From Monocercomonoides exilis PA203 (taxonomy: Eukaryota; Protista; Preaxostyla), in the NCBI GenBank assembly GCA_001643675.2, contig LSRY02000006.1, forward strand, positions 1,116,001 to 1,180,000: 64,000 nt of DNA, written 5' to 3'. Below the pieces are notes generated by a model. That model searched no databases. It worked only from the letters and a program-made list of their open reading frames with translations, and was not told where the DNA came from. Of the stretch, positions 22,051 through 59,436 are shown piece by piece. A program made the translations under genes and the position numbers. The first letter of the stretch is position 1; every line of letters starts with the position of its first letter.

Positions 22051-22322
22051 ATATCGAAAAAATGATTATTTGTGATTATTCGAAGGTGTTGGTTGAGTCT
22101 TGAATAACATGAAAAAATTTGATAGAAATTATTGTTTTTTTAAAAAATATCTCCTTTTCATTTTGAAGCGAAGAAAACTTCTTTGAACTCCATATTTTCA
22201 AAAAGGATGTTGAACAAAATGTTGAATAAAGAGAACCACAACGATAAATGGAAGAAATCATTTTGAATTTGTGGATGATTGAGTTTGCAAAAATCGCCCA
22301 TATTAATATAAATCGGATTAAA

Positions 22323-25300
22323 ATGAAGATTTTATTTCTTTTGTTTTTGTCTTTTTTTGTTGGAAGGGCCCAATGCTACGTGTTTGCAAGCATGCACAAT
22401 GTTGATTTGCGTGAAGTGCACAAGGAAAGCGAGATTTTAGCGCCAGGCTCAAATGAACTTTGGAAAATTGAAAAAAGCCAGTTTTTGTGTGGAAAGGAGA
22501 CAGAAAGCGACGCGAGGACTCCACCGGCCGAGAAGGACATTGCGGGGCGACTATGCCACACTTTTATTGCGTCCTGTGTTTCAGCTGATAATTCGTCGAT
22601 AAGTTGCTTGAACATTCGATTCACTTCAGCAGGGGGAAATGCAATTGTGCGGCTATTGGGGCAATCAACGTGTTTTGCAGGAGGCTGCCTGCTTTCATCG
22701 CCAGCACCTTCAGTTGATGCATTTGTTCACTCGTGCGGCGGATTCATTTGCTTTTTCAATTTGTCTTTGATTCCAACTCGATCGAATTGCCTTCTTCCGT
22801 CGTTGGTTTCTGTTCATCAGGCAGGTGCACTTCAAGGTTGCCAAAGCAGGGTTGAGGTCGAGGGCTCAGCTTTTTCGTCTTTTTTGTTGAGCAATTCAAA
22901 GCCGCTTGTCCAATCATCGACTTTTCACTGGGTCTCAGTCCAATCCAGCACCTTCCAGAATATATCGCAGCAACGTCCCGAGAGAAGCACATTTGGCAAA
23001 TATTGCGCGTCATTCGCGCTGTCGTCCTGCATTGTTTCATCTGTGACCAACCCGACCGAAGGCTGCATTGTTCCAAAAGTGTCAGATGGCTCTCTAAATC
23101 TTTTGAACTCGACATTTTTGAGATGCTCCAAAACAATTGGTTTGAAGATTAATCACGCAGGAACAGATGACACGTGCGTTGACAACTGCATATACGAGCA
23201 ATCTTTAGGTACAATTATTGTCCATTCTTCTTCTGGCATTTGCATTGTTAAAAATACAGATTTTCAGAATTCGTCAGTTGAAAGATGTATCTTTGAAAGG
23301 CAAAGCTGCGAAATGCAATCGATAAACAACAGTTTTTGTTTAATATCAACAACTAATTACGGATCATGCTTGGACCTTTGCGAGGGAACAGGTCCTTTAA
23401 CGATCAGAAATAACAACATGACATCTTGCCAATCAAGTTGGGGAGGAGGTTGTTGTCACTTTCATAATGGGTTTTCAGATGTGGATATTCTTTTAGATTG
23501 CTTATTTGGGAATTGTAATATGATAAATAGCTTTTATGAATGCAATGGAGGCGGTGCTATTTGGAATGGGGAAGGAGCTAAAATATCATATTCAAATGTT
23601 GCATTTGAAAATTGTTGTGCCAATGCATCTGTTGGAGGAGCAATATGTTTTGACTCAAGAAATGTTTCTTTGACACATTACAGTTCACTTTCTTATTGCT
23701 TGTTTTTTGGGTGCGATGCGCTTGGAAACGGAAAAGATATTTATGCAGCAAATCCATGGCAGAATGTATTGAATGAGAGTCAATTTGTTCTCTGTTGTAC
23801 AAATAAGCACTTGGAAGCCAATCGTCTAGTTTTTGCAGAGAAAGGGGATAAAAGCAGTTGGATTGGAAAGCTTGGTAACATTTATGCAGACGTCGATGGG
23901 ACGGACACTTTGGGATGCGGATGGGCAAAGTTTCCATGCTTGACGATATTCAACTCTGTTGAGATTGCCGTTGTAGCGAGCAAAGGCACTCCAGTGTACA
24001 TAAATATAGCAACAGGTTCATACGTGGAACGATCACTTACAATAGACTCGAAATTTCTTTCATTTAAAGGATCAAGGGACTTTGGGACAAAGTTGAGTGC
24101 CAATTTTTCGAATACAAAAGCTCTTTTCCAAATATCAACTGGATATGCGTTCCTTGCAGGATTGGTCGTCGTCAGGAACTCTTCCACATCGACTTCTCTG
24201 CCATTGTTCTGGATTTCTTCTGCAACAGGAGAGCTTGTGCTCTGGTCGTGCAAAATAACCGCTGAGCCATCGCAAGCTTCTCCATTCACCACGGCATTTG
24301 CATCGATATCAGCAGGACTCTTGAATGTGTCGAGCACAGCTGTTGAGTCGATGGTATTTTCTGACGTGTCAGCTCTCAGGATGGAGTCGTCGACGCTGGA
24401 CTGCTTCAATTTGGAGAATGCGACTTTCAGGGACGTCACGCGAAAAGAAGGAAGCGGAACAGTTTTTGATATGGACTTGGGGAGTGGGGACGAGCTGAAA
24501 TTGGACGGGGTGTTGTTTGAAAGGTGTGTGTGCAGCAAAGGGAATGGAGGATGTTTGAATTGCATTGTGGAAGCAGGGGGGAGACTGACACTTGGCTCCA
24601 CAAAAAGAATTGAAATGGAGGGATGCACAGTGCCGCAGGACATGTTCAGCGAGGGAAAAGGAGGAGGAATGCATCTGAAACTAGCAGGAAGTTCATCGAG
24701 TTTTGGGATACGCGATGCTGCGTTCGGCGGATGCGAAGCCTGGAAGGGGAACAACATATTTGTTGATGCGGTTTCGTTGAGCTCGTCAATAACGAGGGGC
24801 GCATTCGGGTTCACACAAGCAGGGATGGTTGACGACGATCTGATGGGGTTTGAAGAGCAGTGCAGGACGGAGCCTGTTCCTCTTCTTGCATATCTTCAGA
24901 CCTTTTCTGGAGCAGTGGTTGTTGGGGGAGCGAAAAACAGAGATTTCACAGGTTGCGGCACAGCCAACTATCCATGCGGAAGCATTGGATATGCAGCAGG
25001 ACTTCGATTTCCCAGCGGCAAGAGATTCATCTCGTTGAATGGAGGCTATGAATGGACAGAATATCTGCTCTTTGATGGTTATGGGTGGGAGGTGAAAAGC
25101 CTCACAAGAGGGCGAGAAATAAAAGTGTGGAGTGGGAGTGGCAGCCGGTCTGAAGGAATGGTGACAGTTGAGATTGCATCGCTCATTGCGAACTTGACTT
25201 TTTCAGCATCTGCGCAGCTTGGGGAGCATTCTTGTTTCCTGCTGTGCCAGTCTGAGGAGCTGTCGATGGCTGACTGCTCGCTGAAATGCTCATCGAGTGG

Positions 25301-28300
25301 AAATGTTGCATTTGGCTTTGGGTTCATAAAGATAAATGGAGGGAGCCTGCTTTTGAGCCGATTTTCCACATTGTCGCCGATTGCGTTTGGAACTGCTTCG
25401 CTGATCAGCCTGTCTGGATCTGGGATGCTAAACTGCGCAGGATGCACGATGAACAGCATCAAGAGGATGAGTGGGAGCGGAGGATGCATTTCGATTGGGA
25501 AGAAGAATGGGGTTGGAAGCAGCCAAAGCAGAAAGATAGCAATTGATGGATGCAGCTTCAGTGGCTGCTGTGCTTGTGGGGATGGAGGAGGGGAAGGAGG
25601 GGAAGGAGGAGGGATGAGTGCGTGGCTGGGAGGAAATGACGATCTGGTTGTGAATGGGTCGACTTGGTTTGAGGAATGCAGCGCGCAGAGTGAAGAAGGA
25701 TGGGGTGGAAAGGGGGGAGGGATAAGCATTCGCTGTGACGATGCTTCTTCTTGGTTTGGAATAATGAATGCAGTTGTATTTTCGAAGGTGAAGGAGAACA
25801 GGGCGGAATATGGGAAGGATGTGTTTGTTGGGTGCGAGAGTGGGATTTTGCTTTCGCAAATGATCAACACGACTTCTTTTGGGTTTTTTGATTCGTCGGA
25901 ATTGCCATCAGACGCTTTGGCTTTGAGCGGGAGCGAGAATGGAAGTGGCTCTGCGGTGATACCTCTGCATGTGTATCTTTGCAGTCTCCAGGCAGAAATA
26001 ATTGCAGACGGCGACATTGGGGCTGATCACACGCATTGTGGGTTTCCTTCTTTTGCTTGCATGACGATTGATTATTGCATTGAAAATCGGATAAGCAGCT
26101 GGTTGAACAGCATCAAGGTTGTCTCCGGGTCGGCAATAAAGCAGGAAATTGCGATCTCCTCTGCACCTGCGAATGTCTATTCTGAAGCGCTTGCGCCTGT
26201 CTCAGTTCAAGATGCAGGGGGAACAGCACAGGATGGGCTGGTGATGTGCCACTCTCCTGTTTTTCTCACAAATCTGTCGCTGAGTGTGCCGAGGCTGTTT
26301 GCAGCAGCAAGAAAAGCCTTTCTCTTCTCTTCGTTGTCGCTTTTCATTGCCAACTGTTGCCTGGAATATTCTTCAGAAAATGTGAACGAACCTGTTTCCT
26401 TTGCTGCTGTCTTTGTGGACAGGGGAGATGTGGTGATGAGTGGATTCAAAATGGAAGTGGGTGCAATGCTCGCGAATTCGCCAGTTTGGATCTGGAATTA
26501 CAATTCCATAAAGGTTGAGAACAGCAGCGTGAGTGGAACGAGGATGATAAATGGAGATGGAGGGTGCTTATTCATTAACGAGGCGAATGGGGATGGGAAA
26601 AGCATATGCATCCAAAGATGCAAGTTCAGTGGCATGTGTGAAGAAGGGAATGGAAACAGAGGCGGGGGGGTCATGGGGAAGGTTGGGAGCGGAAATGCGG
26701 TCAACATTAAAAGCACAAGTTTTGAGAATTGTGGTGTGCCTTCAGGAGATAGCGAAAATGGAGGGAAAGGATTGGGGGGTGGGATGTATCTTTTTTTGAA
26801 CGAAAGGGTCTGGAGCCTCGCCCTCGATAATGTCAGTTTCAGCGGCTGCAGTGCATGGAAAGGAAAGCAGCTGTTTGTTGATGGAGAAGACCTGAGGCAG
26901 ATTGCCGGCGATTGGCTGCAGTGCTTCAAAGCAGAAGCCATGTTGGCGGAAGACATGATGGGGTTTGAGAGAAGCACAGCAAATCGAGAATTCGAGATTC
27001 CGCTTGTGCTGTATTTCCGAGGATTTGTGGAGCCTTGCTTTATTGGGGGAGCAGAGGAGAACGGGCTTGACTACACAGGCTGCGGGTTTTCAGATTATCC
27101 GTGTGGGACGCTGGAGTATGGTGGCTTGATCCGATTTGGGGGTTTGAAGGCGGATTTGAGGCTCATGGAGCATTTCTGTTTTGCGAAGCCAATTGTTCTG
27201 AGGTCTCAAGAGATGGACATTGAAGCAGAGGCAAACGGAACGCTGATAAATGTGGTGTCTGATGGAACAGGAGAAGGCGAGGGACTCATCGAGACAAGCA
27301 ACGCTATCTCATTCAGTGGAATAACATTCAATGTTTCGACAACATTCGCAGCAGCCGAAAGAAAGTGTCTGCTTCTGTGCAGCGGCTCCGCCCTTTCGCT
27401 GGTTGATTGCTCGGTGAACGCGCAATCGAAGAAGATCGACTTTGGGTATGTGATTGTGAGAGGTGGTGCTCTCCATATTCTGAGGGGGGTGCTGAACGAA
27501 ATAGAACTGGTGGGAGCGCTTGTGGTTGAGATAAGCGGGGCAAGCAGCCGATGCACTCTAGAGGATGTGGAATGGAACAACCTGAAGACAGGGTCAATCG
27601 AAGGGCTTGTTTGTGCGAAGTCGAAGAGCCATGTTGAAATGAAAAACTCGAAAGTGTCAGGGCCGACACAGTTTGGGAATCAGGGGGTCTTGTTCGTTGA
27701 GGAATTGGCGAGCGCAATGGTTGAAAAGAGCAACTTCACACTTTTGACGAGAAAGGAAGGAAACGGAGGGGTAATTCAGGGAAGTGCTGGAGCCGGGAAG
27801 AGCTTGAGTGTGAGTTTTTGCTGGTTCACTTTTATCAGCTGCCTGGGGAGTGGGTCGAAAGGAGGAAGCGTCGTTGCAACTGTGTCAGCCGATGGGGAGC
27901 TGCTGTTCAACAACAACACAGTTGAAGAGAGCAAAGTGAAGAAAGCAGACGGGCTGGGGGAGGGCTGCACATGGAGTTTTTGAGCAGCGAGGTTGGATAC
28001 TCGATGAAAAACAACAAATTCCTGAGCAACGATGCGATGCTGGGATACGATGTGTATCTTGTGTGCCCGCGCCGCGGATGATGATTGACAGAAATAAATG
28101 GGCAGGGTCGGCCACAGAAGGCCAGGAGGAGAAAACGATGTGGGTGATTGATCCAACATTTCCGGATGGAACAGACACGCTTCTGAAGTATCTGTTTCCG
28201 AGAGCAGAGGAAATAATATATGTGAACACGGTCAATGGGCACACAGACGGGTGCGGCACTGACGATTATCCTTGCGAGGAGCTTTGGTATGCTTCGGGGA

Positions 28301-31300
28301 AAATGACCGAGGAGAAGCGCATTCTACAGATTATTTCTTCTTGTGAATTGCGGGGAGCGATCGAGAGGGGAAATGAGCCGACGACGATTGAAGGGAAAGG
28401 GGAGGATGGAAGCCGGCTGATTGTGGGGAAAGAGGGGCACTTGAAGATGGCGGTTGGCGCTGCACTCACGACACTGACGATTTCGAAGATTGGATTTGAG
28501 CTGCCGGGAATATCAGAGTTTGGGGAACTGGTGGAAGTCAGTGTGGGGACAACGTATTTTGTGGAGTGCACATTCGGGAGCGGCGATCCGGAAGCATGTG
28601 CAGAGACAAGCATGCGGATAATAACAGGGAGAGGCGGAAAGCTCTCATTTGATGGAGTGGTTATAAAGAACATGGTTTTTAATTCTGATTGCGGAATCTT
28701 TTTGAGCGGCGAGGTTGGGTGCAGTTTTGACTGTGTGGAAGCGAGCAACATCCGATCAAGCGGAAAAGGAATGGTTGTTGGAGAAGGCGGAATGGAGGTT
28801 TTGGTGAATGAATTGAGAAGCACAAAGTGCTCATTTGGGGATGGCAGCTTTGCTGTGCTGAAGAAAGTGAAGAGGCTGAAGTGGAAGAATGGGACGAGCA
28901 TGATGGGTTGCAGGAATGAAGGAGGGGACGGTGGGTGCGGGGTTATTTCAGTTGAAGGAGAAAGCGATGTTGAGATGAACGGGACAAGCATCAGGTTGTG
29001 CTCAGCAAGCGAGGATCGCGGAAGAGGAGGCGGGCTGTATCTGGAGATTTCAGAGAATCCTCTGGTGAATATGAAACTGACAGACATAACGTTTGCAGAT
29101 AATTTAGCAGTTGAGGGAAAGACATGTTTGTTTTGAGCACAGATGTGAATGCATCTGTTGTGAGAGAAAGGTTTGCATTTCAGCTTCAGAACGAGAGAAA
29201 CGAAAGCGTTGCTGATCTGAAAGGCACAGATGATGTTTTGTTGAGTGGATCAGTTATTGATCTCCTGGTGTTCTTGGTTCAAAGGAAGGAGAGTTCGATT
29301 CTTGTATCAAGGGGCGGAATGGACATTCTTGGGTGTGGAAGCGCGGAATTCCCTTGCCTGTCGTTCTGGAGAGGATATGAAAACATCGACTTAGATGCGC
29401 AGAATCGAGCGATACGAATTGACACAAGAGCAAATATCAAAAATCATTATGACCTCTCATCGTTCGAAGTTGTATCGAGCAAGGTAGATGAGAAGTGTGT
29501 GATGCTGTTTGAAAATGGCATGGAAGCAAGCGAAGAGAAAAAACCGATTATTCAGAACTCGAAAGAATTGAAGTTGGAATTGGTTCAGCTTTCGCTTCCA
29601 TCCTCTTTCTCAAACAACGAAGGCGTCCTTCTCCACTCTTCATCGGCCAATTCTTTCCTTTCGCTCAATGGATGCACCTTCAACCAAAACAGTGGATCAG
29701 ACTTGGAGTTCTGCATTATTCGTTCTGAAGGAGGCGATGTTCAATTGCTGGATTGCGATTTCTGTTCGCTGTCTTTCTTATCAACTCCTGTTCAGCTGAA
29801 TTCTTCGTGTGAAATAATCGGATGCAATTTTTCATCGATATCTGCAAGGCCAAGCGAGAAAGGGGGAGCAGTTTATGCGGAGCTGGTGGGTGAAGCGACG
29901 TTTTCGATGGGGCAAACAGAAACAGTTGGGTGCGGCTGCTCTGAAGAATGTGGAAGAGGCGGGTTTATTTTTGTTGAATGCCAAGGTGCGTCAACAGACA
30001 ATCCTTTTGTTTTTGGCGAAGGCATTTCTTTTGCTGGACACAAGGCGCGGGCAGGGAAAAACATATTCATCTCTGCGGGGGATCTGAACAAAAGTGTGAC
30101 GCTATCGTCATTCTGTTTTGACTTCACGAAAGGGAGAGAAGACGAGCTGCTGTTTTGTGGAAGGGATTTGGTCTGGGAAGACACGGGGTTGCTCCGTTTC
30201 TTGGAGACATACGTGAGCCAAACAATATTTGTGAGTTCAGGTGGATACGATATTATGAGGTGCGGAAGCGAAGAGGATCCGTGCAGGAGCATGTGGAAAG
30301 GGATGAGGCAGATAGAGCGAGATGCTCCGCAGACGTGGATAAAAATAGTCGATGAGACGATTGTGCAGGATTCGTTTGTGCTCTCAAACTTTATTATTGA
30401 GCGTGAAGAGACAGAGGAGGAAAATCGAGGAAAGCTGATATTTGCAAACAAGACAGCCGATGGAACCGACCCAGGGATACGCAGCGAGGATGCTTTGCAG
30501 CTGAACAGGATTTCTGTTGTGCTGTCTAAAGGATTTTGGAACGAGCAGCTGTTTTCGATTGTTGGGAAAAGTGGGGTGATTGGGATGAGCGATTGTTCAT
30601 TTGCGACAGAGGCAGGCGGAGACTTTCCAGCGAAGGTTGGGCTTTTGCTGATGGAAAGCGGAGTGTTGAATGTTACGAAGCTGGCGGTTGAGAATGTGAT
30701 GTCGGAGGTGGGTGTGTTTGCAATCAGCAAGAGATGCGATTGCGTGATGCAGCAAGTTGTGGCTTCGGGGTGCACATTTTGTGATGAAAGCTTTGTGAAA
30801 ATAGTTCCAAGTGGAAATGGAATGGAGAATGCAGCTGAATGCGCTGTTGCAATCAAAGACTCGACTTTCCAGCTGATCACTCGGAATGGCAACGGGCCTG
30901 CGATTATCAGTTCGTCTGGGTGTGCCGCTGCTCTATCAATCAGCGGGTGCACATTTGATTCGTGCAAGGCAGTTGAATCGGAGAAGGGTGGCGGTGTTTT
31001 TGAGGAGCTTCATAGTGAAGGAGCTCTGTGGATGAGCAAGTCGTCGGTGATTCAGTGTGGATGCAGCAACGACAACGGAAAAGGAGGAGGGATTTACATA
31101 TATGCCAATTTTGAGGGAGCACTCTCGTTTCTGTTTGAGAAGATGACATTCAAAGGAAACAGCGCGAAAGTGGGGAATGACGTCTTTGTTGAGTGTGTTG
31201 ACATCGAGAACCAGATCAACGAAACGCAGTTTTGTTTTGATTTGCGAGAAACGGCATACGCGCGGTTGAATGCCATCTACGGGATGGACACAAGGAACCA

Positions 31301-34298
31301 CAAAAGCGACACGAATCTGATGGACTTTGTCACGATCCACCAGGCGGACACAATCATCCTGTCATCGGATCCATCGAAGAACGGGAAGAACGATAGGCAG
31401 TGCGGAACGCTGAAGCTTCCGTGCGTGACGCTGGGCTATGCGCTGAGCCATTTGACGAACGATGTCGATAGCAGGCTTCTGGTGGATGGGGAATCTTGTG
31501 TTGAGAAAGAAATAAATCTGGAAGATCTTTCAGTGGCGTCTCGGAAGGAGGATGTTTCGAAAGTGGCGGTATTCGGTGATATTGCGCACACAAGAGCGAG
31601 CGTGATGGTAACCACAGGCAGTGTCTCTGTCTCGAAGATTGAATTTTTCTTTGATTCAGATTTTTCTTCAGCTCACCGCGTTCTGCTCACAGCAGAGTCT
31701 GGAAGCCTATCATTGTTTTTGTGCAGTTTTGCTCAATCGCAGGAAGAAAGAAGTGCTCAAACGATTGGACTGACGCTCGTCTCAATCGAAAATGGGCAAG
31801 TGACTGCTTCACAGATAAAAATATCTCACATGCACTTTTCTGCCGAAGCTTCAGTTCGAATCGCTCGTTTGAGTGGTTGCGTGTTGCTCTCTGAAATGAA
31901 AGTGGAAGATGTTGTTCTGAATGGAGGCACTTTCATTTTGGTTGAAGGAGCACATCCGTTTTCTGAACAGCAGAAAATAGGAGGAGAAAAGACCGTTGAG
32001 CTAAAAGATGTGTCATTTGACAATGTTTTATCAACACAGCAGGAGAAAGGGGTCATCGCTTGCTCGTTGTTCAAAGGAGGGATTTATTTGGCGAATTGCA
32101 CTTGTTCCAATGCTTCTTCGAAGTGTGTAACAGGAAGCGTGATGAGTTTTTGCGATTGCAGCAACGTGACATTGCATTGGAACGTGCTTCGAGGTGACCT
32201 GGAGCATTCAGAAAAAAGTGAAAACAGCAAAGAGGCGGACATTTGCCAATGGACATCTTCAGCTGTTTCTTTTGTCAGCAGCACAGCGACAATGAAAGAT
32301 ACCACGATTGCAAACAACTCTATAGGAGGAATGAGCATGTTTGGAGGAAGCATGATGATTGAAAAAAGCGAATTCATAAACAACAATCCGAAGATCGGAA
32401 ATTATCAATCAGTTCGGAGAAATATCGTTTGTGCAGGCTCTGGGTTGTTGAACGTTGCAAGTGTGAAAGGAGGAGACGGAGCGAAGGAGGGCTCATCGCT
32501 GTGGTTCCTAAACGAAGGGTGCACGCTGGGCGGGATAGCAGAAGAAAGAGAATCAGCGTTTTTCATTCCGGAACTTAAAAGTGTGAAGGGGGAAGATGAT
32601 GGAAGTGTGACGAGGCTGAAGTTCGTTGGGCTGCTTCTTGTTCCTTGCAATCTATCGTTTCGGGTGGTGAAGAGGGTTGGATCGGAGGCGTTGGTGGAGA
32701 GATACTCATTTGAAGAGGGAGGGTTTGTGTCGGAGGCAGAAGTATTAGGGGAAGTGCCTTCAAAGACGATTTGTGAGGCAGGAGAGGAGACAGAAGTGTC
32801 GTTGTGCATTCTGTATGGAAATGCGGAGACACCTTCGCCAACAAAGGAATTCATTTTGAAGAACGGAAGCAATCCGAAAGCAAATGGAGAAGAAAAGCTT
32901 GTTGAAGGTGGAAAAGAAGGAAAATCATCATGGGCGCTTATTGTGATTGTGATATTTGCTGTGTTATTCGTTATTGCTATGATTGGTTTTATTTTGTTTG
33001 TTATCCGCTGGAGAAAGCAAAAGAGAAGAACGGAAGAATTGGAGATAATTGTGGAAGACACAGTGAAGAAGGATCCGAAGGCGTTTGAGATGGTGACGAT
33101 GGAGATGTCGCCTGAGGAGCAATGGAGGAGAGCAGAGAGGGAGGCAGAGAAGAAGAACGAGGAGAGAATAAAGAAGAGGGTGTATGAGAAAAGCTTGGGA
33201 CACTCAGAGTCATCAGAGCATTTGCTGAGTGAATGTGAATCGACTGAATACATTCTTGGAAGAGATTCAGACAAAATTCCTGAATGGATGCTGGAGAAAG
33301 CAGACGATGATGAAAAAGAGAAAGAGGAGAAAAGGAAGCAAACACCATCGCCATCCATCTCATCCACTTCAACGACAGATACGTCAGACACAGAATCCAC
33401 TTTTGTTCGGAGAGAGGACTTGTGCCCAACCACTTCATCGATGTCGAACTTGGTGGATGCAATGGCCTGCTCCTCGCCTCATGAGAAGCTGATTGTGGAT
33501 CTGAGGGATTCGCTGTTCATGTTACTTCATGGGAGGAACGAGAAGAAAGAGATGGCGATTGGCTCTTTGGAGGAGAGGGAGCTGACAGCAGCCCAGATCC
33601 TGTTCTGGGTGGCTAATCTTGCGCTCCATTCTTTCGACGAAACGGAAATTCCGCTTCAGTCGCTGAGCAGTCTGAGTCCGCACATTGTGCTGTTCTCAGA
33701 GCACATGGTGATCTGCATTGTGATGCACTCTGATTTCCTTTCATCTGATGATTCAGACTCATCGTCGATCTCCTCGTCGACTGTTGTGACATCTGCAAGC
33801 GATGATGACAGTGACTCTCTGCCCTCATCAGCGTTTGAGGATGACTCGGATTTCAAGAAAGAGTGTCTGAGGTGGATGGCGCCGGAGCTGTTGAATGGAG
33901 CGAAGAAGCATGGGACGAAGAAGACAGTGGTGTTCTCGATTGGGATGATGCTGTGGGAGTGCCTGACGCTGGAGATCCCGTTTGGAGAGTATGAGGCAGT
34001 GATTGCTGGGGATAAGATTGTGAAAGGAGAAAGGCCAAGCATGGCGAAGATTGAAGGAACGTCAATGGAAAAAGTTGTGGAATGTTGTCTGCTGGGAGAA
34101 CGTGAAAAGCGGCCAGGCTTGAATGATGTCAAGCGGGAGTTCATATCGCACCAACCAAAAAGGTTTCTTCAAATGACGAGGTCAGATGCAGTTTGCGTTT
34201 CGAGCGAGATTGTCTTTATTTATCATTCAGATGAAGACAACATCAAAAGGGCCGCCGACACGAAGGCGAAATCAAAAGCATCCGAGTCATTCGTGTGA
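22323..34298 (+). CDS. Giant (~3,990 aa) type-I membrane protein: signal peptide, repeated Cys-rich/beta-helix modules, TM helix, C-terminal degenerate kinase domain (left copy; 3 apparent 1-nt frameshifts)
   Basis: Signal MKILFLLFLSFFVGRAQC; eight CG-x5-(P/A)C modules with GGG/GGA-x-hydrophobic repeats; TM WALIVIVIFAVLFVIAMIGFILFVI-RWRK; kinase C-lobe RWMAPELL, VFSIGMMLWECLTLEIPF and ERP. Frameshifts at ~27960, ~28066 and ~29115 are intact in the right copy. Confidence 0.85.
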
Positions 34299-35165
34299 AA
34301 CGATTCAATTAAATAGAAGTTATGAATAAAGAAGCTGTCGTGGCTTTGTTTGCGTGTTGATCAGATATTTGCGTGTCTTTCTTGAAAACAATGTGAGGTT
34401 GATATGTATTTTAAAAGCTCTTTGTGTTCAAGTGAATATCATAGAATTTTTTGTTCTTATAACAAGCGATGCTTGACCTGAAGCGATTATCATTCTGTGG
34501 CACAAACTTGCATATTTAGAAGTTTCTAAATATATATGTGGTGTTTATATGCAGCAGCAGCAGAAACAACAATATGTATATGTATATTATCCTCTTTTCT
34601 TAATTTTCAGCTCTTTATTTGACACTCAAATTCCGATTAACGTGTTTAATCACATTTCACTCTATTTTTTGCAAATATGAAATACAACATCAAATGTTTT
34701 GGGCATTTCTTCAATCCATATTCAAAGCAAAATTTAGAACACAGCCATAAGCCGATGCTAAACAAGAATTGTTCAAAAATGAAATTATTTGCATCGAACA
34801 AGTTGCGAAAGTTGTGTTCAAGTCAGATTATTTTCCAATCAAGATTCATTGCCAAAACTGAAATTTCGTTGTGATCGAACAAATTAACTGAATATCTGAG
34901 GCGCATGCCAGATGAAGGGCCTATTTTTGCAACTGCTGCAATGTGAAGAAGTTAATTACTTTTGAACTGCAATGCGAAATTTTTGAAGTGTTACAAACGA
35001 TAACTAAAATTGATTTATTCAACATGTTGGTGTATTTCTTTGAGTTCTTTCAAAAATTTCAGAATCATTTATTTTCTCATAAAAAAAAATTATAATTAAA
35101 ATTAAAATTACAATAAAAAATAAAATAAAATAAAATTGAATGAAAAATTAGAAAATATATATGTA

Positions 35166-35210
35166 CAGTCAGTGCCAAACACGATCCATGGTGCGAAACC
35201 CGGCCCATTA
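35166..35210 (+). repeat. Terminal inverted repeat of pogo-like transposon (3' end), mirrored at ~46092-46136
   Basis: TA|CAGTCAGTGCCAAACACGATCCATGGTGCGAAACCCGGCCCA: CAGT terminus after TA, with two ~19-bp imperfect tandem repeats. Confidence 0.7.
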
Positions 35211-35562
35211 CAAAAGTATTTAAAATGACTAACTCTTTGTAATTCTTTCAATTCCATAAGTGATAATGAATAATTTCAACTATTCGAAATCACAGGACCA
35301 TTTTATGACGCGTGGACAGTTTCATGATAGCTTTTGAAAAAAATGAAACAAAGAATTTATCTTTTTGCATTTTATTGAATATTATAGAAATAGTAGATAT
35401 GAAACAATAAAAACGATAATCAAGTTTCGATAATGCTCGCAAAGAGTGTTTTGCTTTCAAAGATCACATTTTTCCATTGTATTTATTGAAGTACTCTTCT
35501 CTTATGCGTCTTTCTTTCGAATCAAATGAAGGAGAAATTTCTCTGGGAGGGTGAACAAAATA

Positions 35563-37408: not shown

Positions 37409-37591
37409 TACTTGATATATATCATCGTTTTTTGTGTCAATTTCTTTCTATAACTCAAACATGATATCATTTTTTGGCATAAGTGTAAAAAAAAATACCT
37501 CCTTCAGTTTAGCAATTTTTTCATTTCAACAAAATAGAAATAAATAACATAAAAATTCAACACTTTTGGGTGGAGCAGTTTTTTGATATAT

Positions 37592-43710: not shown

Positions 43711-43893
43711 ATATATCAAAAAACTGCTCCACCCAAAAGTGTTGAATTTTTATGTTATTTATTTCTATTTTGTTGAAATGAAAAAATTGCTAAACTGAAG
43801 GAGGTATTTTTTTTTACACTTATGCCAAAAAATGATATCATGTTTGAGTTATAGAAAGAAATTGACACAAAAAACGATGATATATATCAAGTA

Positions 43894-47004: not shown

Positions 47005-50000
47005 TCACACGAATGACTCGGATGCTTTTGATTTCGCCTTCGTGTCGGCGGCCCTTTTGATGTTGTCTTCATCTGAATGATAAATAAAGACAATCTCGCT
47101 CGAAACGCAAACTGCATCTGACCTCGTCATTTGAAGAAACCTTTTTGGTTGGTGCGATATGAACTCCCGCTTGACATCATTCAAGCCTGGCCGCTTTTCA
47201 CGTTCTCCCAGCAGACAACATTCCACAACTTTTTCCATTGACGTTCCTTCAATCTTCGCCATGCTTGGCCTTTCTCCTTTCACAATCTTATCCCCAGCAA
47301 TCACTGCCTCATACTCTCCAAACGGGATCTCCAGCGTCAGGCACTCCCACAGCATCATCCCAATCGAGAACACCACTGTCTTCTTCGTCCCATGCTTCTT
47401 CGCTCCATTCAACAGCTCCGGCGCCATCCACCTCAGACACTCTTTCTTGAAATCCGAGTCATCCTCAAACGCTGATGAGGGCAGAGAGTCACTGTCATCA
47501 TCGCTTGCAGATGTCACAACAGTCGACGAGGAGATCGACGATGAGTCTGAATCATCAGATGAAAGGAAATCAGAGTGCATCACAATGCAGATCACCATGT
47601 GCTCTGAGAACAGCACAATGTGCGGACTCAGACTGCTCAGCGACTGAAGCGGAATTTCCGTTTCGTCGAAAGAATGGAGCGCAAGATTAGCCACCCAGAA
47701 CAGGATCTGGGCTGCTGTCAGCTCCCTCTCCTCCAAAGAGCCAATCGCCATCTCTTTCTTCTCGTTCCTCCCATGAAGTAACATGAACAGCGAATCCCTC
47801 AGATCCACAATCAGCTTCTCATGAGGCGAGGAGCAGGCCATTGCATCCACCAAGTTCGACATCGATGAAGTGGTTGGGCACAAGTCCTCTCTCCGAACAA
47901 AAGTGGATTCTGTGTCTGACGTATCTGTCGTTGAAGTGGATGAGATGGATGGCGATGGTGTTTGCTTCCTTTTCTCCTCTTTCTCTTTTTCATCATCGTC
48001 TGCTTTCTCCAGCATCCATTCAGGAATTTTGTCTGAATCTCTTCCAAGAATGTATTCAGTCGATTCACATTCACTCAGCAAATGCTCTGATGACTCTGAG
48101 TGTCCCAAGCTTTTCTCATACACCCTCTTCTTTATTCTCTCCTCGTTCTTCTTCTCTGCCTCCCTCTCTGCTCTCCTCCATTGCTCCTCAGGCGACATCT
48201 CCATCGTCACCATCTCAAACGCCTTCGGATCCTTCTTCACTGTGTCTTCCACAATTATCTCCAATTCTTCCGTTCTTCTCTTTTGCTTTCTCCAGCGGAT
48301 AACAAACAAAATAAAACCAATCATAGCAATAACGAATAACACAGCAAATATCACAATCACAATAAGCGCCCATGATGATTTTCCTTCTTTTCCACCTTCA
48401 ACAAGCTTTTCTTCTCCATTTGCTTTCGGATTGCTTCCGTTCTTCAAAATGAATTCCTTTGTTGGCGAAGGTGTCTCCGCATTTCCATACAGAATGCACA
48501 ACGACACTTCTGTCTCCTCTCCTGCCTCACAAATCGTCTTTGAAGGCACTTCCCTAATACTTCTGCCTCCGACACAAACCCTCCCTCTTCAAATGAGTAT
48601 CTCTCCACCAACGCCTCCGATCCAACCCTCTTCACCACCCGAAACGATAGATTGCAAGGAACAAGAAGCAGCCCAACGAACTTCAGCCTCGTCACACTTC
48701 CATCATCTTCCCCCTTCACACTTTTAAGTTCCGGAATGAAAAACGCTGATTCTCTTTCTTCTGCTATCCCGCCCAGCGTGCACCCTTCGTTTAGGAACCA
48801 CAGCGATGAGCCCTCCTTCGCTCCGTCTCCTCCTTTCACACTTGCAACGTTCAACAACCCAGAGCCTGCACAAACGATATTTCTCCGAACTGATTGATAA
48901 TTTCCGATCTTCGGATTGTTGTTTATGAATTCGCTTTTTTCAATCATCATGCTTCCTCCAAACATGCTCATTCCTCCTATAGAGTTGTTTGCAATCGTGG
49001 TATCTTTCATTGTCGCTGTGCTGCTGACAAAAGAAACAGCTGAAGATGTCCATTGGCAAATGTCCGCCTCTTTGCTGTTTTCACTTTTTTCTGAATGCTC
49101 CAGGTCACCTCGAAGCACGTTCCAATGCAATGTCACGTTGCTGCAATCGCAAAAACTCATCACGCTTCCTGTTACACACTTCGAAGAAGCATTGGAACAA
49201 GTGCAATTCGCCAAATAAATCCCTCCTTTGAACAACGAGCAAGCGATGACCCCTTTCTCCTGCTGTGTTGATAAAACATTGTCAAATGACACATCTTTTA
49301 GCTCAACGGTCTTTTCTCCTCCTATTTTCTGCTGTTCAGAAAACGGATGTGCTCCTTCAACCAAAATGAAAGTGCCTCCATTCAGAACAACATCTTCCAC
49401 TTTCATTTCAGAGAGCAACACGCAACCACTCAAACGAGCGATTCGAACTGAAGCTTCGGCAGAAAAGTGCATGTGAGATATTTTTATCTGTGAAGCAGTC
49501 ACTTGCCCATTTTCGATTGAGACGAGCGTCAGTCCAATCGTTTGAGCACTTCTTTCTTCCTGCGATTGAGCAAAACTGCACAAAAACAATGATAGGCTTC
49601 CAGACTCTGCTGTGAGCAGAACGCGGTGAGCTGAAGAAAAATCTGAATCAAAGAAAAATTCAATCTTCGAGACAGAGACACTGCCTGTGGTTACCATCAC
49701 GCTCGCTCTTGTGTGCGCAATATCACCGAATACCGCCACTTTCGAAACATCCTCCTTCCGAGACGCCACTGAAAGATCTTCCAGATTTATTTCTTTCTCA
49801 ACACAAGATTCCCCATCCACCAGAAGCCTGCTATCGACATCGTTCGTCAAATGGCTCAGCGCATAGCCCAGCGTCACGCACGGAAGCTTCAGCGTTCCGC
49901 ACTGCCTATCGTTCTTCCCGTTCTTCGATGGATCCGATGACAGGATGATTGTGTCCGCCTGGTGGATCGTGACAAAGTCCATCAGATTCGTGTCGCTTTT

Positions 50001-53000
50001 GTGGTTCCTTGTGTCCATCCCGTAGATGGCATTCAACCGCGCGTATGCCGTTTCTCGCAAATCAAAACAAAACTGCGTTTCGTTGATCTGGTTCTCGATG
50101 TCAACACACTCAACAAAGACGTCATTCCCCACTTTCGCGCTGTTTCCTTTGAATGTCATCTTCTCAAACAGAAACGAGAGTGCTCCCTCAAAATTGGCAT
50201 ATATGTAAATCCCTCCTCCTTTTCCGTTGTCGTTGCTGCATCCACACTGAATCACCGACGACTTGCTCATCCACAGAGCTCCTTCACTATGAAGCTCCTC
50301 AAAAACACCGCCACCCTTCTCCGATTCAACTGCCTTGCACGAATCAAATGTGCACCCGCTGATTGATAGAGCAGCGGCACACCCAGACGAACTGATAATC
50401 GCAGGCCCGTTGCCATTCCGAGTGATCAGCTGGAAAGTCGAGTCTTTGATTGCAACAGCGCATTCAGCTGCATTCTCCATTCCATTTCCACTTGGAACTA
50501 TTTTCACAAAGCTTTCATCACAAAATGTGCACCCCGAAGCCACAACTTGCTGCATCACGCAATCGCATCTCTTGCTGATTGCAAACACACCCACCTCCGA
50601 CATCACATTCTCAACCGCCAGCTTCGTAACATTCAACACTCCGCTTTCCATCAGCAAAAGCCCAACCTTCGCTGGAAAGTCTCCGCCTGCCTCTGTCGCA
50701 AATGAACAATCGCTCATCCCAATCACCCCACTTTTCCCAACAATCGAAAACAGCTGCTCGTTCCAAAATCCTTTAGACAGCACAACAGAAATCCTGTTCA
50801 GCTGCAAAGCATCCTCGCTGCGTATCCCTGGGTCGGTTCCATCGGCTGTCTTGTTTGCAAATATCAGCTTTCCTCGATTTTCCTCCTCTGTCTCTTCACG
50901 CTCAATAATAAAGTTTGAGAGCACAAACGAATCCTGCACAATCGTCTCATCGACTATTTTTATCCACGTCTGCGGAGCATCTCGCTCTATCTGCCTCATC
51001 CCTTTCCACATGCTCCTGCACGGATCCTCTTCGCTTCCGCACCTCATAATATCGTATCCACCTGAACTCACAAATATTGTTTGGCTCACGTATGTCTCCA
51101 AGAAACGGAGCAACCCCGTGTCTTCCCAGACCAAATCCCTTCCACAAAACAGCAGCTCGTCTTCTCTCCCTTTCGTGAAGTCAAAACAGAATGACGATAG
51201 CGTCACACTTTTGTTCAGATCCCCCGCAGAGATGAATATGTTTTTCCCTGCCCGCGCCTTGTGTCCAGCAAAAGAAATGCCTTCGCCAAAAACAAAGGAT
51301 TGTCTGTTGACGCACCTTGGCATTCAACAAAAATAAACCCGCCTCTTCCACATTCTTCAGAGCAGCCGCACCCAACTGTTTCTGTTTGCCCCATCGAAAA
51401 CGTCGCTTCACCCACCAGCTCCGCATAAACTGCTCCCCCTTTCTCGCTTGGCCTTGCAGATATCGATGAAAAATTGCATCCGATTATTTCACACGAAGAA
51501 TTCAGCTGAACAGGAGTTGATAAGAAAGACAGCGAACAGAAATCGCAATCCAGCAATTGAACATCGCCTCCTTCAGAACGAATAATGCAGAACTCCAAGT
51601 CTGATCCACTGTTTTGGTTGAAGGTGCATCCATTGAGCGAAAGGAAAGAATTGGCCGATGAAGAGTGGAGAAGGACGCCTTCGTTGTTTGAGAAAGAGGA
51701 TGGAAGCGAAAGCTGAACCAATTCCAACTTCAATTCTTTCGAGTTCTGAATAATCGGTTTTTTCTCTTCGCTTGCTTCCATGCCATTTTCAAACAGCATC
51801 ACACACTTCTCATCTACCTTGCTCGATACAACTTCGAACGATGAGAGGTCATAATGATTTTTGATATTTGCTCTTGTGTCAATTCGTATCGCTCGATTCT
51901 GCGCATCTAAGTCGATGTTTTCATATCCTCTCCAGAACGACAGGCAAGGGAATTCCGCGCTTCCACACCCAAGAATGTCCATTCCGCCCCTTGATACAAG
52001 AATCGAACTCTCCTTCCTTTGAACCAAGAACACCAGGAGATCAATAACTGATCCACTCAACAAAACATCATCTGTGCCTTTCAGATCAGCAACGCTTTCG
52101 TTTCTCTCGTTCTGAAGCTGAAATGCAAACCTTTCTCTCACAACAGATGCATTCACATCTGTGCTCAAAACAAACATGTCTTTCCCCTCAACTGCTAAAT
52201 TATCTGCAAACGTTATGTCTGTCAGTTTCATATTCACCAGAGGATTCTCTGAAATCTCCAGATACAGCCCGCCTCCTCTTCCGCGATCCTCGCTTGCTGA
52301 GCACAACCTGATGCTTGTCCCGTTCATCTCAACATCGCTTTCTCCTTCAACTGAAATAACCCCGCACCCACCGTCCCCTCCTTCATTCCTGCAACCCATC
52401 ATGCTCGTCCCATTCTTCCACTTCAGCCTCTTCACTTTCTTCAGCACAGCAAAGCTGCCATCCCCAAATGAGCACTTTGTGCTTCTCAATTCATTCACCA
52501 AAACCTCCATTCCGCCTTCTCCAACAACCATTCCTTTTCCGCTTGATCGGATGTTGCTCGCTTCCACACAGTCAAAACTGCACCCAACCTCGCCGCTCAA
52601 AAAGATTCCGCAATCAGAATTAAAAACCATGTTCTTTATAACCACTCCATCAAATGAGAGCTTTCCGCCTCTCCCTGTTATTATCCGCATGCTTGTCTCT
52701 GCACATGCTTCCGGATCGCCGCTCCCGAATGTGCACTCCACAAAATACGTTGTCCCCACACTGACTTCCACCAGTTCCCCAAACTCTGATATTCCCGGCA
52801 GCTCAAATCCAATCTTCGAAATCGTCAGTGTCGTGAGTGCAGCGCCAACCGCCATCTTCAAGTGCCCCTCTTTCCCCACAATCAGCCGGCTTCCATCCTC
52901 CCCTTTCCCTTCAATCGTCGTCGGCTCATTTCCCCTCTCGATCGCTCCCCGCAATTCACAAGAAGAAATAATCTGTAGAATGCGCTTCTCCTCGGTCATT

Positions 53001-56000
53001 TTCCCCGAAGCATACCAAAGCTCCTCGCAAGGATAATCGTCAGTGCCGCACCCGTCTGTGTGCCCATTGACCGTGTTCACATATATTATTTCCTCTGCTC
53101 TCGGAAACAGATACTTCAGAAGCGTGTCTGTTCCATCCGGAAATGTTGGATCAATCACCCACATCGTTTTCTCCTCCTGGCCTTCTGTGGCCGACCCTGC
53201 CCATTTATTTCTGTCAATCATCATCCGCGGCGCGGGGCACACAAGATACACATCGTATCCCAGCATCGCATCGTTGCTCAGGAATTTGTTGTTTTTCATC
53301 GAGTATCCAACCTCGCTGCTCAAAAACTCCATGTGCAGCCCTCCCCCCAGCCCGTCTGCTTTCTTCACTTTGCTCTCTTCAACTGTGTTGTTGTTGAACA
53401 GCAGCTCCCCATCGGCTGACACAGTTGCAACGACGCTTCCTCCTTTCGACCCACTCCCCAGGCAGCTGATAAAAGTGAACCAGCAAAAACTCACACTCAA
53501 GCTCTTCCCGGCTCCAGCACTTCCCTGAATTACCCCTCCGTTTCCTTCCTTTCTCGTCAAAAGTGTGAAGTTGCTCTTTTCAACCATTGCGCTCGCCAAT
53601 TCCTCAACGAACAAGACCCCCTGATTCCCAAACTGTGTCGGCCCTGACACTTTCGAGTTTTTCATTTCAACATGGCTCTTCGACTTCGCACAAACAAGCC
53701 CTTCGATTGACCCTGTCTTCAGGTTGTTCCATTCCACATCCTCTAGAGTGCATCGGCTGCTTGCCCCGCTTATCTCAACCACAAGCGCTCCCACCAGTTC
53801 TATTTCGTTCAGCACCCCCCTCAGAATATGGAGAGCACCACCTCTCACAATCACATACCCAAAGTCGATCTTCTTCGATTGCGCGTTCACCGAGCAATCA
53901 ACCAGCGAAAGGGCGGAGCCGCTGCACAGAAGCAGACACTTTCTTTCGGCTGCTGCGAATGTTGTCGAAACATTGAATGTTATTCCACTGAATGAGATAG
54001 CGTTGCTTGTCTCGATGAGTCCCTCGCCTTCTCCTGTTCCATCAGACACCACATTTATCAGCGTTCCGTTTGCCTCTGCTTCAATGTCCATCTCTTGAGA
54101 CCTCAGAACAATTGGCTTCGCAAAACAGAAATGCTCCATGAGCCTCAAATCCGCCTTCAAACCCCCAAATCGGATCAAGCCACCATACTCCAGCGTCCCA
54201 CACGGATAATCTGAAAACCCGCAGCCTGTGTAGTCAAGCCCGTTCTCCTCTGCTCCCCCAATAAAGCAAGGCTCCACAAATCCTCGGAAATACAGCACAA
54301 GCGGAATCTCGAATTCTCGATTTGCTGTGCTTCTCTCAAACCCCATCATGTCTTCCGCCAACATGGCTTCTGCTTTGAAGCACTGCAGCCAATCGCCGGC
54401 AATCTGCCTCAGGTCTTCTCCATCAACAAACAGCTGCTTTCCTTTCCATGCACTGCAGCCGCTGAAACTGACATTATCGAGGGCGAGGCTCCAGACCCTT
54501 TCGTTCAAAAAAAGATACATCCCACCCCCCAATCCTTTCCCTCCATTTTCGCTATCTCCTGAAGGCACACCACAATTCTCAAAACTTGTGCTTTTAATGT
54601 TGACCGCATTTCCGCTCCCAACCTTCCCCATGACCCCCCCGCCTCTGTTTCCATTCCCTTCTTCACACATGCCACTGAACTTGCATCTTTGGATGCATAT
54701 GCTTTTCCCATCCCCATTCGCCTCGTTAATGAATAAGCACCCTCCATCTCCATTTATCATCCTCGTTCCACTCACGCTGCTGTTCTCAACCTTTATGGAA
54801 TTGTAATTCCAGATCCAAACTGGCGAATTCGCGAGCATTGCACCCACTTCCATTTTGAATCCACTCATCACCACATCTCCCCCTGTCCACAAAGACAGCA
54901 GCAAAGGAAACAGGTTCGTTCACATTTTCTGAAGAATATTCCAGGCAACAGTTGGCAATGAAAAGCGACAACGAAGAGAAGAGAAAGGCTTTTCTTGCTG
55001 CTGCAAACAGCCTCGGCACACTCAGCGACAGATTTGTGAGAAAAACAGGAGAGTGGCACATCACCAGCCCATCCTGTGCTGTTCCCCCTGCATCTTGAAC
55101 TGAGACAGGCGCAAGCGCTTCAGAATAGACATTCGCAGGTGCAGAGGAGATCGCAATTTCCTGCTTTATTGCCGACCCGGAGACAACCTTGATGCTGTTC
55201 AACCAGCTGCTTATCCGATTTTCAATGCAATAATCAATCGTCATGCAAGCAAAAGAAGGAAACCCACAATGCGTGTGATCAGCCCCAATGTCGCCGTCTG
55301 CAATTATTTCTGCCTGGAGACTGCAAAGATACACATGCAGAGGTATCACCGCAGAGCCACTTCCATTCTCGCTCCCGCTCAAAGCCAAAGCGTCTGATGG
55401 CAATTCCGACGAATCAAAAAACCCAAAAGAAGTCGTGTTGATCATTTGCGAAAGCAAAATCCCACTCTCGCACCCAACAAACACATCCTTCCCATATTCC
55501 GCCCTGTTCTCCTTCACCTTCGAAAATACAACTGCATTCATTATTCCAAACCAAGAAGAAGCATCGTCACAGCGAATGCTTATCCCTCCCCCCTTTCCAC
55601 CCCATCCTTCTTCACTCTGCGCGCTGCATTCCTCAAACCAAGTCGACCCATTCACAACCAGATCGTCATTTCCTCCCAGCCACGCACTCATCCCTCCTCC
55701 TTCCCCTCCTTCCCCTCCTCCATCCCCACAAGCACAGCAGCCACTGAAGCTGCATCCATCAATTGCTATCTTTCTGCTTTGGCTGCTTCCAACCCCATTC
55801 TTCTTCCCAATCGAAATGCATCCTCCGCTCCCACTCATCCTCTTGATGCTGTTCATCGTGCATCCTGCGCAGTTTAGCATCCCAGATCCAGACAGGCTGA
55901 TCAGCGAAGCAGTTCCAAACGCAATCGGCGACAATGTGGAAAATCGGCTCAAAAGCAGGCTCCCTCCATTTATCTTTATGAACCCAAAGCCAAATGCAAC

Positions 56001-58981
56001 ATTTCCACTCGATGAGCATTTCAGCGAGCAGTCAGCCATCGACAGCTCCTCAGACTGGCACAGCAGGAAACAAGAATGCTCCCCAAGCTGCGCAGATGCT
56101 GAAAAAGTCAAGTTCGCAATGAGCGATGCAATCTCAACTGTCACCATTCCTTCAGACCGGCTGCCACTCCCACTCCACACTTTTATTTCTCGCCCTCTTG
56201 TGAGGCTTTTCACCTCCCACCCATAACCATCAAAGAGCAGATATTCTGTCCATTCATAGCCTCCATTCAACGAGATGAATCTCTTGCCGCTGGGAAATCG
56301 AAGTCCTGCTGCATATCCAATGCTTCCGCATGGATAGTTGGCTGTGCCGCAACCTGTGAAATCTCTGTTTTTCGCTCCCCCAACAACCACTGCTCCAGAA
56401 AAGGTCTGAAGATATGCAAGAAGAGGAACAGGCTCCGTCCTGCACTGCTCTTCAAACCCCATCAGATCGTCGTCAACCATCCCTGCTTGTGTGAACCCGA
56501 ATGCGCCCCTCGTTATTGACGAGCTCAACGAAACCGCATCAACAAATATGTTGTTCCCCTTCCAGGCTTCGCATCCGCCGAACGCAGCATCGCGTATCCC
56601 AAAACTCGATGAACTTCCTGCTAGTTTCAGATGCATTCCTCCTCCTTTTCCCTCGCTGAACATGTCCTGCGGCACTGTGCATCCCTCCATTTCAATTCTT
56701 TTTGTGGAGCCAAGTGTCAGTCTCCCCCTGCTTCCACAATGCAATTCAAACATCCTCCATTCCCTTTGCTGCACACACACCTTTCAAACAACACCCCGTC
56801 CAATTTCAGCTCGTCCCCACTCCCCAAGTCCATATCAAAAACTGTTCCGCTTCCTTCTTTTCGCGTGACGTCCCTGAAAGTCGCATTCTCCAAATTGAAG
56901 CAGTCCAGCGTCGACGACTCCATCCTGAGAGCTGACACGTCAGAAAATACCATCGACTCAACAGCTGTGCTCGACACATTCAAGAGTCCTGCTGATATCG
57001 ATGCAAATGCCGTGGTGAATGGAGAAGCTTGCGATGGCTCAGCGGTTATTTTGCACGACCAGAGCACAAGCTCTCCTGTTGCAGAAGAAATCCAGAACAA
57101 TGGCAGAGAAGTCGATGTGGAAGAGTTCCTGACGACGACCAATCCTGCAAGGAACGCATATCCAGTTGATATTTGGAAAAGAGCTTTTGTATTCGAAAAA
57201 TTGGCACTCAACTTTGTCCCAAAGTCCCTTGATCCTTTAAATGAAAGAAATTTCGAGTCTATTGTAAGTGATCGTTCCACGTATGAACCTGTTGCTATAT
57301 TTATGTACACTGGAGTGCCTTTGCTCGCTACAACGGCAATCTCAACAGAGTTGAATATCGTCAAGCATGGAAACTTTGCCCATCCGCATCCCAAAGTGTC
57401 CGTCCCATCGACGTCTGCATAAATGTTACCAAGCTTTCCAATCCAACTGCTTTTATCCCCTTTCTCTGCAAAAACTAGACGATTGGCTTCCAAGTGCTTA
57501 TTTGTACAACAGAGAACAAATTGACTCTCATTCAATACATTCTGCCATGGATTTGCTGCATAAATATCTTTTCCGTTTCCAAGCGCATCGCACCCAAAAA
57601 ACAAGCAATAAGAAAGTGAACTGTAATGTGTCAAAGAAACATTTCTTGAGTCAAAACATATTGCTCCTCCAACAGATGCATTGGCACAACAATTTTCAAA
57701 TGCAACATTTGAATATGATATTTTAGCTCCTTCCCCATTCCAAATAGCACCGCCTCCATTGCATTCATAAAAGCTATTTATCATATTACAATTCCCAAAT
57801 AAGCAATCTAAAAGAATATCCACATCTGAAAACCCATTATGAAAGTGACAACAACCTCCTCCCCAACTTGATTGGCAAGATGTCATGTTGTTATTTCTGA
57901 TCGTTAAAGGACCTGTTCCCTCGCAAAGGTCCAAGCATGATCCGTAATTAGTTGTTGATATTAAACAAAAACTGTTGTTTATCGATTGCATTTCGCAGCT
58001 TTGCCTTTCAAAGATACATCTTTCAACTGACGAATTCTGAAAATCTGTATTTTTAACAATGCAAATGCCAGAAGAAGAATGGACAATAATTGTACCTAAA
58101 GATTGCTCGTATATGCAGTTGTCAACGCACGTGTCATCTGTTCCTGCGTGATTAATCTTCAAACCAATTGTTTTGGAGCATCTCAAAAATGTCGAGTTCA
58201 AAAGATTTAGAGAGCCATCTGACACTTTTGGAACAATGCAGCCTTCGGTCGGGTTGGTCACAGATGAAACAATGCAGGACGACAGCGCGAATGACGCGCA
58301 ATATTTGCCAAATGTGCTTCTCTCGGGACGTTGCTGCGATATATTCTGGAAGGTGCTGGATTGGACTGAGACCCAGTGAAAAGTCGATGATTGGACAAGC
58401 GGCTTTGAATTGCTCAACAAAAAAGACGAAAAAGCTGAGCCCTCGACCTCAACCCTGCTTTGGCAACCTTGAAGTGCACCTGCCTGATGAACAGAAACCA
58501 ACGACGGAAGAAGGCAATTCGATCGAGTTGGAATCAAAGACAAATTGAAAAAGCAAATGAATCCGCCGCACGAGTGAACAAATGCATCAACTGAAGGTGC
58601 TGGCGATGAAAGCAGGCAGCCTCCTGCAAAACACGTTGATTGCCCCAATAGCCGCACAATTGCATTTCCCCCTGCTGAAGTGAATCGAATGTTCAAGCAA
58701 CTTATCGACGAATTATCAGCTGAAACACAGGACGCAATAAAAGTGTGGCATAGTCGCCCCGCAATGTCCTTCTCGGCCGGTGGAGTCCTCGCGTCGCTTT
58801 CTGTCTCCTTTCCACACAAAAACTGGCTTTTTTCAATTTTCCAAAGTTCATTTGAGCCTGGCGCTAAAATCTCGCTTTCCTTGTGCACTTCACGCAAATC
58901 AACATTGTGCATGCTTGCAAACACGTAGCATTGGGCCCTTCCAACAAAAAAAGACAAAAACAAAAGAAATAAAATCTTCAT
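47005..58981 (-). CDS. Right copy of the giant membrane receptor/pseudokinase (4 apparent 1-nt frameshifts)
   Basis: Mirror of 22323-34298. Frameshifts at ~56725, ~54880, ~51295 and ~48552 are intact in the left copy. Confidence 0.85.
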
Positions 58982-59436
58982 TTTAATCCGATTTATATTA
59001 ATATGGGCGATTTTTGCAAACTCAATCATCCACAAATTCAAAATGATTTCTTCCATTTATCGTTGTGGTTCTCTTTATTCAACATTTTGTTCAACATCCT
59101 TTTTGAAAAACTGAAGTTAAAAAAATAATTTGTTCGATTCGAAAAACATAAGGATTAGGTTTTATTAACAAAAGTGTTTTGAATACTATTTTTTCGTAAT
59201 AAAAACAATCTCTGGATGTTTATTTAAGGTAACAAATTCATTATACGAAAATAACGAGATCAAGCTCATATGGGACAGATTTTTTGAATTTAAGAAAAAA
59301 TCTATGATTTGTTCCAAATTATTTCTGAAATCGTAGAATTATGATTCTGACATTAAAGTGATATTTTGGTATATTCACATAGAAAGGGGCAAAAAAATTT
59401 CACAGAAAAAAAAAATAAAAAATACAGAAATAAAGA

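Follow-up and report, generated by a model that had tools for sequence, protein, structure and literature searches.

The rDNA palindrome of Tetrahymena is a free, telomere-capped molecule with matching ends. A 42-bp inverted repeat beside a programmed break primes the fold-back synthesis from which it arises (as cited in PMC3734650). Accidental duplications of the fold-back type are known mainly from yeast experiments and human patients. In yeast, inverted Alu repeats lying 1.5 kb apart in single-stranded DNA led to inverted duplications of about 24 kb in 8 of 12 clones (PMC10164571), fold-back repeats were tolerated at up to 25% divergence (PMC10164571, PMC10622511), and the duplications were healed at PAU paralogs (PMC10164571; similar in PMC10622511). 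In a study on human inverted duplications, the spacer measured 766-70,466 bp (median 3,428), and three of 21 junctions made use of Alu or L1 copies that border the spacer in inverted orientation (PMC3907307). Metamonads appear to retain the recombination routes needed (PMC8516963).

The locus considered here lies in a 64,000-nt stretch of contig LSRY02000006.1 of Monocercomonoides exilis PA203 (hereafter the window). Self-BLAST gave a single 17.3-kb inverted match within the window at 99.8-99.9% identity, and exact alignment pairs 22195-39415 with 59109-41887, which confirms the original prediction of near-identical inverted 17.2-kb arms around a 2,471-bp spacer. The palindrome totals 36,915 bp and consists of a left arm of 17,221 bp (22195..39415, plus strand), a mirror right arm of 17,223 bp (41887..59109, minus strand), which is also covered by arm-exact contigs, and a spacer at 39416..41886 that is single-copy by alignment and depth and includes 15 bp of imperfect repeat at each edge, where a partial match extends 15 bp past the inner arm edge with substitutions at 39416, 39424, and 39426. 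A 17-kb match of this kind is far beyond chance. The arms differ by eight single-base indels, every one of them in a homopolymer run, and by one substitution (37345/43957) within a multi-copy transposase remnant; the upper bound on their divergence is ~0.03%, and the mirror duplication is very young. A 12-kb receptor-like gene, a dead transposase, and a miniature element (MITE) were all found in both arms, and a DUF5906 gene with stops was found in the spacer, as expected from the claim of a primase-helicase pseudogene at the center. We consider that the palindrome arose as a 17-kb inverted duplication by fold-back at the repeats of the central element, followed by outward copying and repair at a weak homology, and we assign this reading a probability only slightly above one half (about 0.52).

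Compared with the Alu fold-backs of yeast, this locus is similar in the spacing of the transposon repeats (1.5 kb there, 2.47 kb here), in the amount of DNA duplicated (~24 kb there, 17 kb here), and possibly in having its outer end at a gene-family or repeat homology; however, the yeast events were selected in mutants or after induced breaks, with terminal deletion and translocation shown (PMC10164571, PMC10622511), and the outer homology of this palindrome is only ~60 bp at 69%. The 2,471-bp spacer falls within the human range and within the ~1-70 kb that characterizes the class, but the human cases are mostly megabase-sized, pathogenic, and located beside terminal deletions, whereas here 17 kb are followed by an ordinary-looking chromosome (PMC3907307). 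With the Tetrahymena palindrome the locus shares an inverted repeat that would prime fold-back synthesis, but the repeat is 42 bp there (as cited in PMC3734650) and here at least 760 bp and derived from a dead element, with the arms ending in two different chromosomal flanks. Neither a short repeat nor a free palindrome with matching, telomere-capped ends was found here, and the analogy to Tetrahymena rDNA that had been drawn for this locus gives way to the accidental fold-back duplications of yeast and humans as closer models. If our reading is correct, the locus would provide a clean natural case, in a little-studied protist lineage, of a rearrangement whose mechanism is already known but of which this is a new example, with both junctions readable in the sequence. 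No account of this palindrome or of its element was found in the largely open-access Monocercomonoides and oxymonad literature that was covered.

The spacer contains a D5-type primase-helicase pseudogene (39637..41833, plus strand) with eight stops and three frame changes relative to an intact 732-aa family member, to which its pieces are 75-87% identical. The best match of the spacer gene is an M. exilis 'Poxvirus D5 protein' (89%; 88 matches), and relatives are also present in Trichomonas and Streblomastix. Its helicase half matches DUF5906, PDB 6k9e, and PHROG DNA primase families (phage), and the N-terminal half is presumably a primase, a label that we take from a DxD/GxH motif alone. Of eight runs that cover the region, the four DNA runs (X1-X4), all of one sample, provided contigs that were placed on 39351-59350 and used to examine the copies of this element. 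In X1, the depths summed across the gene reach 690-890, which corresponds to some 7-8 copies with an identity of at least 90%. A paralogous single-copy contig links the gene end (41789) to 41879-41909 in each of the four runs, and in three it continues to 42633; the inner repeat edge has about twice the depth of the gene (the family letter at 39416 reaches 1,568 in X1). Because this contig joins the gene end to the repeat and the inner edge is at twofold depth, we conclude that inverted repeats on either side of the gene are native to the element family. At 39416, the right-edge letter is the family letter, and the left-edge letter is private and at single-copy depth (37 in X4, 4.3 in X2), so that inverted homology prior to the duplication is evident at the spacer edges from the contig link, the depth, and the differing letters. 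The left repeat extends at least over 38669..39430 (plus strand), as delimited by the paralogous contig, with its outer end at ~37852 at most, and the right repeat at least over 41872..42633 (minus strand); from 41886 outward, the two repeats are now the same. The repeat is therefore at least ~760 bp long and cannot pass the MITE at 37851. The whole element measures ~4-5.6 kb.

Between the repeats of the element, where one gene fills 39637-41833, no integrase, transposase, polymerase, or capsid gene was found; searches with a D5 relative in viral contigs and with a 32-nt repeat motif in metagenome contigs gave no match. The Maverick-Polinton elements of metamonads have a similar combination of inverted ends and a primase-helicase gene, but they are 15-30 kb long and encode capsid, polymerase, and integrase, whereas the element here has a single gene between its repeats (PMC10120064). 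Terminal inverted repeats are thus the Maverick-Polinton trait found here, and a protein-primed polymerase, integrase, or capsid gene and a length of 15-30 kb are the traits lacking between its ends. The central element resembles a reduced Maverick-Polinton relative. The family as a whole seems to consist of a single primase-helicase gene flanked by long inverted repeats, with no integrase.

The state of the element also provides information on the order of events. Its eight stops correspond to ~7-9% neutral decay, at least 3%. Repeats that had aged alike should differ at ~110-150 of 800 bp, and 0 differences were observed in 2,070 bp; furthermore, letters at 42758-42788 that are rare in the element family are common to both arms. 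Because the arms share the rare letters of this particular copy and the repeats are without differences, the duplication postdates the death of the element: when the gene had long been dead, one aged repeat appears to have overwritten its partner, and the switch lies at the inner edge. The element is a passive substrate, not an agent. The suggestion that its inverted repeats seeded fold-back or template switching agrees with the native repeats, the symmetry switch, and the doubled arms, but it has to be restricted to a passive role of an element that was already dead.

Each arm carries a receptor-like gene with a C-terminal kinase remnant, the left copy at 22248..34298 (plus strand) and the right copy at 47005..59056 (minus strand), with 0 substitutions between them. 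The gene is 12 kb long and encodes a hydrophobic N-terminus and one transmembrane segment (32943-33005). Since the kinase match covers only positions 164-257 of 258 in Pfam PF07714, that is, the last 94, catalytic activity of the predicted remnant is doubtful. Seven of the eight indels between the arms lie in this gene, and each of them breaks the reading frame in one arm only. When the right-arm version is taken at three indel sites, the left copy becomes one 4,017-aa frame with a length as in paralogs, and two paralogs align across the frame breaks. For three indels, the full depth of the X1 contigs supports the left-arm version; for a fourth, contigs of X1 and X2 match the right arm without a gap; and for a fifth, a contig shows one gap that would agree with the indel (five of the eight indels are visible among the listed contigs). 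These short-read contigs suggest that the arm indels are consensus errors. Based on the frame reconciliation, the paralog alignment, and the contig versions at the indels, both gene copies are likely intact and identical, and the frameshifts in both should be treated with caution as probable consensus errors.

Receptor kinases are among the largest families of the M. exilis genome (PMC8767320), and the seven long proteins related to the arm gene (3,581-3,978 aa) all come from M. exilis. Six of the eight long family members form mutual closest pairs, each pair on one contig (12, 20, and 30 accessions apart; 92.3, 91.5, and 89.6% protein identity). Local duplication, in one orientation or the other, recurs in the receptor family. 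The older local pairs are P0092/P0098, P0093/P0094, and P0095/P0096; in the last, identity varies between 0.79 and 0.97 per 250 aa ahead of unrelated C-termini, and patchy conversion is possible. Fold-back duplication is one concrete way for a large receptor-kinase family to gain whole copies.

Directly outside the arms, we observed a weak homology between 22135..22194 on the left (60 bp, plus strand) and 59110..59173 on the right (minus strand), with 44 of 64 columns alike. A score this high was reached by none of 2,000 shuffles and by one of 2,000 real non-coding controls (one of 600 controls in a first test). At a single base, identity falls from 100% to 69%; no convincing homology was found beyond ~60 bp outside the arms, and the 60-bp stretch has no other convincing repeat match in the rest of the window. 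The junction lies 53 bp upstream of the first ATG of the receptor-like gene and 128 bp upstream of its likely start, and the 60-bp stretch may be the 5' region of a receptor paralog. The two arms lead into different flanks, beyond which further genes follow, and the right flank has 4.9 kb of its own sequence.

The native repeats, the symmetry switch at their inner edge, and the outer 60-bp homology all support fold-back. In such an event, a break or a long single-stranded gap beyond the right repeat would let this repeat pair with the left one, with the 2.47-kb gene looped out. Synthesis from the paired end would copy the left repeat and 15-16 kb of host DNA (either arm may be the copy), which would erase the differences between the two aged repeats. 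The new arm could then have been joined to other DNA at the 60-bp homology, whether directly by template switching or once replication had been followed by another break, and a joining point ~130 bp upstream of the likely start codon would have left a whole second copy of the gene. The proteins of the element would play no part, and the mirror arm would have replaced one of the original flanks of the element.

The reality of the palindrome was examined with the contigs of the four runs, 32 of 41,380 pieces being listed. One X1 contig (record 8; 879 nt, 0 differences) spans 58231-59109 and ends at the last shared base, and one X3 contig (record 24) passes 59109 by 52 nt and has four differences expected of the left flank, which fall in the first 13 bases outside the arm. 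The X3 contig thus shows the left outer junction, and since the X1 contig stops at the base where the X3 contig enters the left flank, the arm is implied to have another exit at this point. Among the 32 of 41,380 pieces listed, no contig crosses the right inner junction (near 41880) or leads from 59109 into the right flank. For depth, the eight listed arm contigs of each run were compared with contigs carrying the window's own letter at 31 spacer rows (from 40 listed of 894), 'single copy' being, by our choice, the lowest depth group of the spacer-specific contigs rather than a unique flank. Contig depth is not copy number, and summed bin depths were not taken as the copy number of the arms. 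The X4 arms have a median depth of 63.6 and the lowest spacer group (nine distinct values) one of 31.4, a ratio of 2.0, with five higher spacer values set aside as shared with paralogs. In X1, arms at 173 and spacer at 112 (four values, three higher ones set aside) give a raw ratio of 1.5; arm depth in this run decreases as GC rises (rho -0.95), and the depth of 258 fitted for the GC of the spacer gives a GC-matched ratio of ~2.3. Keeping all non-zero spacer rows lowers the ratios to 1.4 (X1) and 1.7 (X4), and the shallow runs, with depths near 5-10, give only 1.3 (X2) and 1.2 (X3) and are too shallow to use. At 9 of the 31 spacer rows, the window's letter is absent from all runs; these letters may be dropped rare variants or errors. 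By contig depth, duplicated arms around an unduplicated spacer, the pattern of the fold-back class, were observed in X4 and X1 and weakly in X2 and X3. The comparison of arm and spacer depth that had been proposed as a check on this locus therefore came out near twofold in X1 (GC-matched) and X4, but weakly in X2 and X3.

Given a contig that ends at the outer end of the arm, another that enters the left flank, and arms at about twice the depth of the spacer, the palindrome is probably real and not a product of assembly. An artefact, either from long reads that fold back or from a mis-join of two dispersed copies or haplotypes through the element repeat, would explain why the arms differ almost only by homopolymer errors and why right-hand junctions are absent from the listed contigs, and the nanopore N50 of one published M. 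exilis assembly (8.9 kb; PMC8767320), a possible source of the window, is shorter than an arm. However, plain fold-back reads predict single-depth arms without an outer branch, and the opposite was observed in the two deep runs; if both arm copies led into the same spacer, its letters should be as deep as the arms, and they were observed at about half that depth; and an artefact does not fit with the independent sequence of the right flank. We regard such an origin as quite unlikely. A biological alternative is that older, converging receptor paralogs flanked the element and that the right side was recently overwritten by a copy of the left, through long gene conversion or gap repair, with the tract running between the repeat of the element and the 5' region of the paralog, no dicentric being formed and the chromosome end being kept. 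The flanks are indeed weakly homologous directly outside the arms, just upstream of the gene, and the three other receptor pairs close together on single contigs, at 90-92% protein identity, show that such substrates exist, in one orientation or the other. However, the abrupt loss of identity at one base, with nothing convincing beyond the 60-bp stretch, speaks against this reading, and gene conversion would have had to cover an unusually long tract, 17 kb free of heterology in which a dead transposon and a MITE are included. This course of events is unlikely, although it deserves more weight than an artefact.

An active contribution of the element, in which proteins from an intact copy acted on the ends of this copy and ran into host DNA by a transposition or replication error, might be considered because the family has a recorded intact member, a 732-aa primase-helicase, and the symmetry axis coincides with the element. 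However, this copy is long dead, its repeats enclose no integrase or transposase gene, and a passive substrate accounts for all observations, which makes active involvement very improbable. Fold-back at the passive repeats is thus the reading that we prefer. It had also been proposed that the element offers a general route for amplifying the receptor family. This is not supported so far: none of the 12 contig-placed M. exilis D5 records is on any of the three receptor-pair contigs, which is a weak test as broken copies may be unannotated. The wider idea that scattered copies of a minimal oxymonad element repeatedly seed mirror duplications healed at receptor 5' ends, thereby driving the expansion of the family, appears improbable; if true, the window would represent one such element-seeded event caught almost without mutation.

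Several other repeats are present in the arms and flanks. An 84-aa ORF of a high-copy family (38461..38715, plus strand; mirror 42587-42841, minus strand) lies next to or in the element repeat; it is intact and basic beside the dead gene, and has a depth of 12,600-19,000 in X1, which suggests well over 100 related copies by contig depth, far above the helicase gene. The one relative of this ORF lies 107 accessions away from the D5 record of the same contig, which is no evidence that the ORF belongs to the element. The high-copy MITE (37588..37851; mirror 43451-43714) has inverted ends and loose contig ends at both borders. The dead DDE_1 transposase remnant (35168..37450, minus strand; mirror ~43852-46134), which we take to be pogo-like, contains stops and frameshifts. 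At 38016-38282, near the presumed outer end of the element repeat, a 46-nt inverted pair separated by 175 nt could be a small MITE or part of the terminus. Outside the arms, two 400-bp hairpin elements (21513-21922 and 61635-62038; 97% and 80% self-complementary) are located beside or inside a copy of the same MITE and have a common 52-nt central motif (81%), and a third hairpin is at 60929-61147. We rejected the possibility that the flanks derive from an older and longer palindrome, as the MITE copies have the same, not mirror, orientation and the hairpins share only the 52-nt core. Five CCCTAA hexamers occur on the minus strand within 152 bp (59564-59715), with six other telomere hexamers across the window; telomere healing at the outer end was rejected, since these five, 450-610 bp outside, point towards the arm, which is the wrong way. 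The adjoining stretch (59430-59720 region) contains what we take to be tRNA-like A- and B-box motifs. ARAGORN called 0 tRNAs, including none in this stretch, the 12 Rfam matches in 59000-62700 are all below the gathering score, and the tRNA-like part near 59430-59530 folds unremarkably (z -1.65). Candidate identities for the region 59430-59720 are a telo-box promoter, a remnant of a SINE, and a decayed subtelomere. To the left of the palindrome, 386-11267 encodes the housekeeping proteins Aquarius helicase, two WD40 proteins, one of which is presumably RACK1-like, and a Brix-domain protein.
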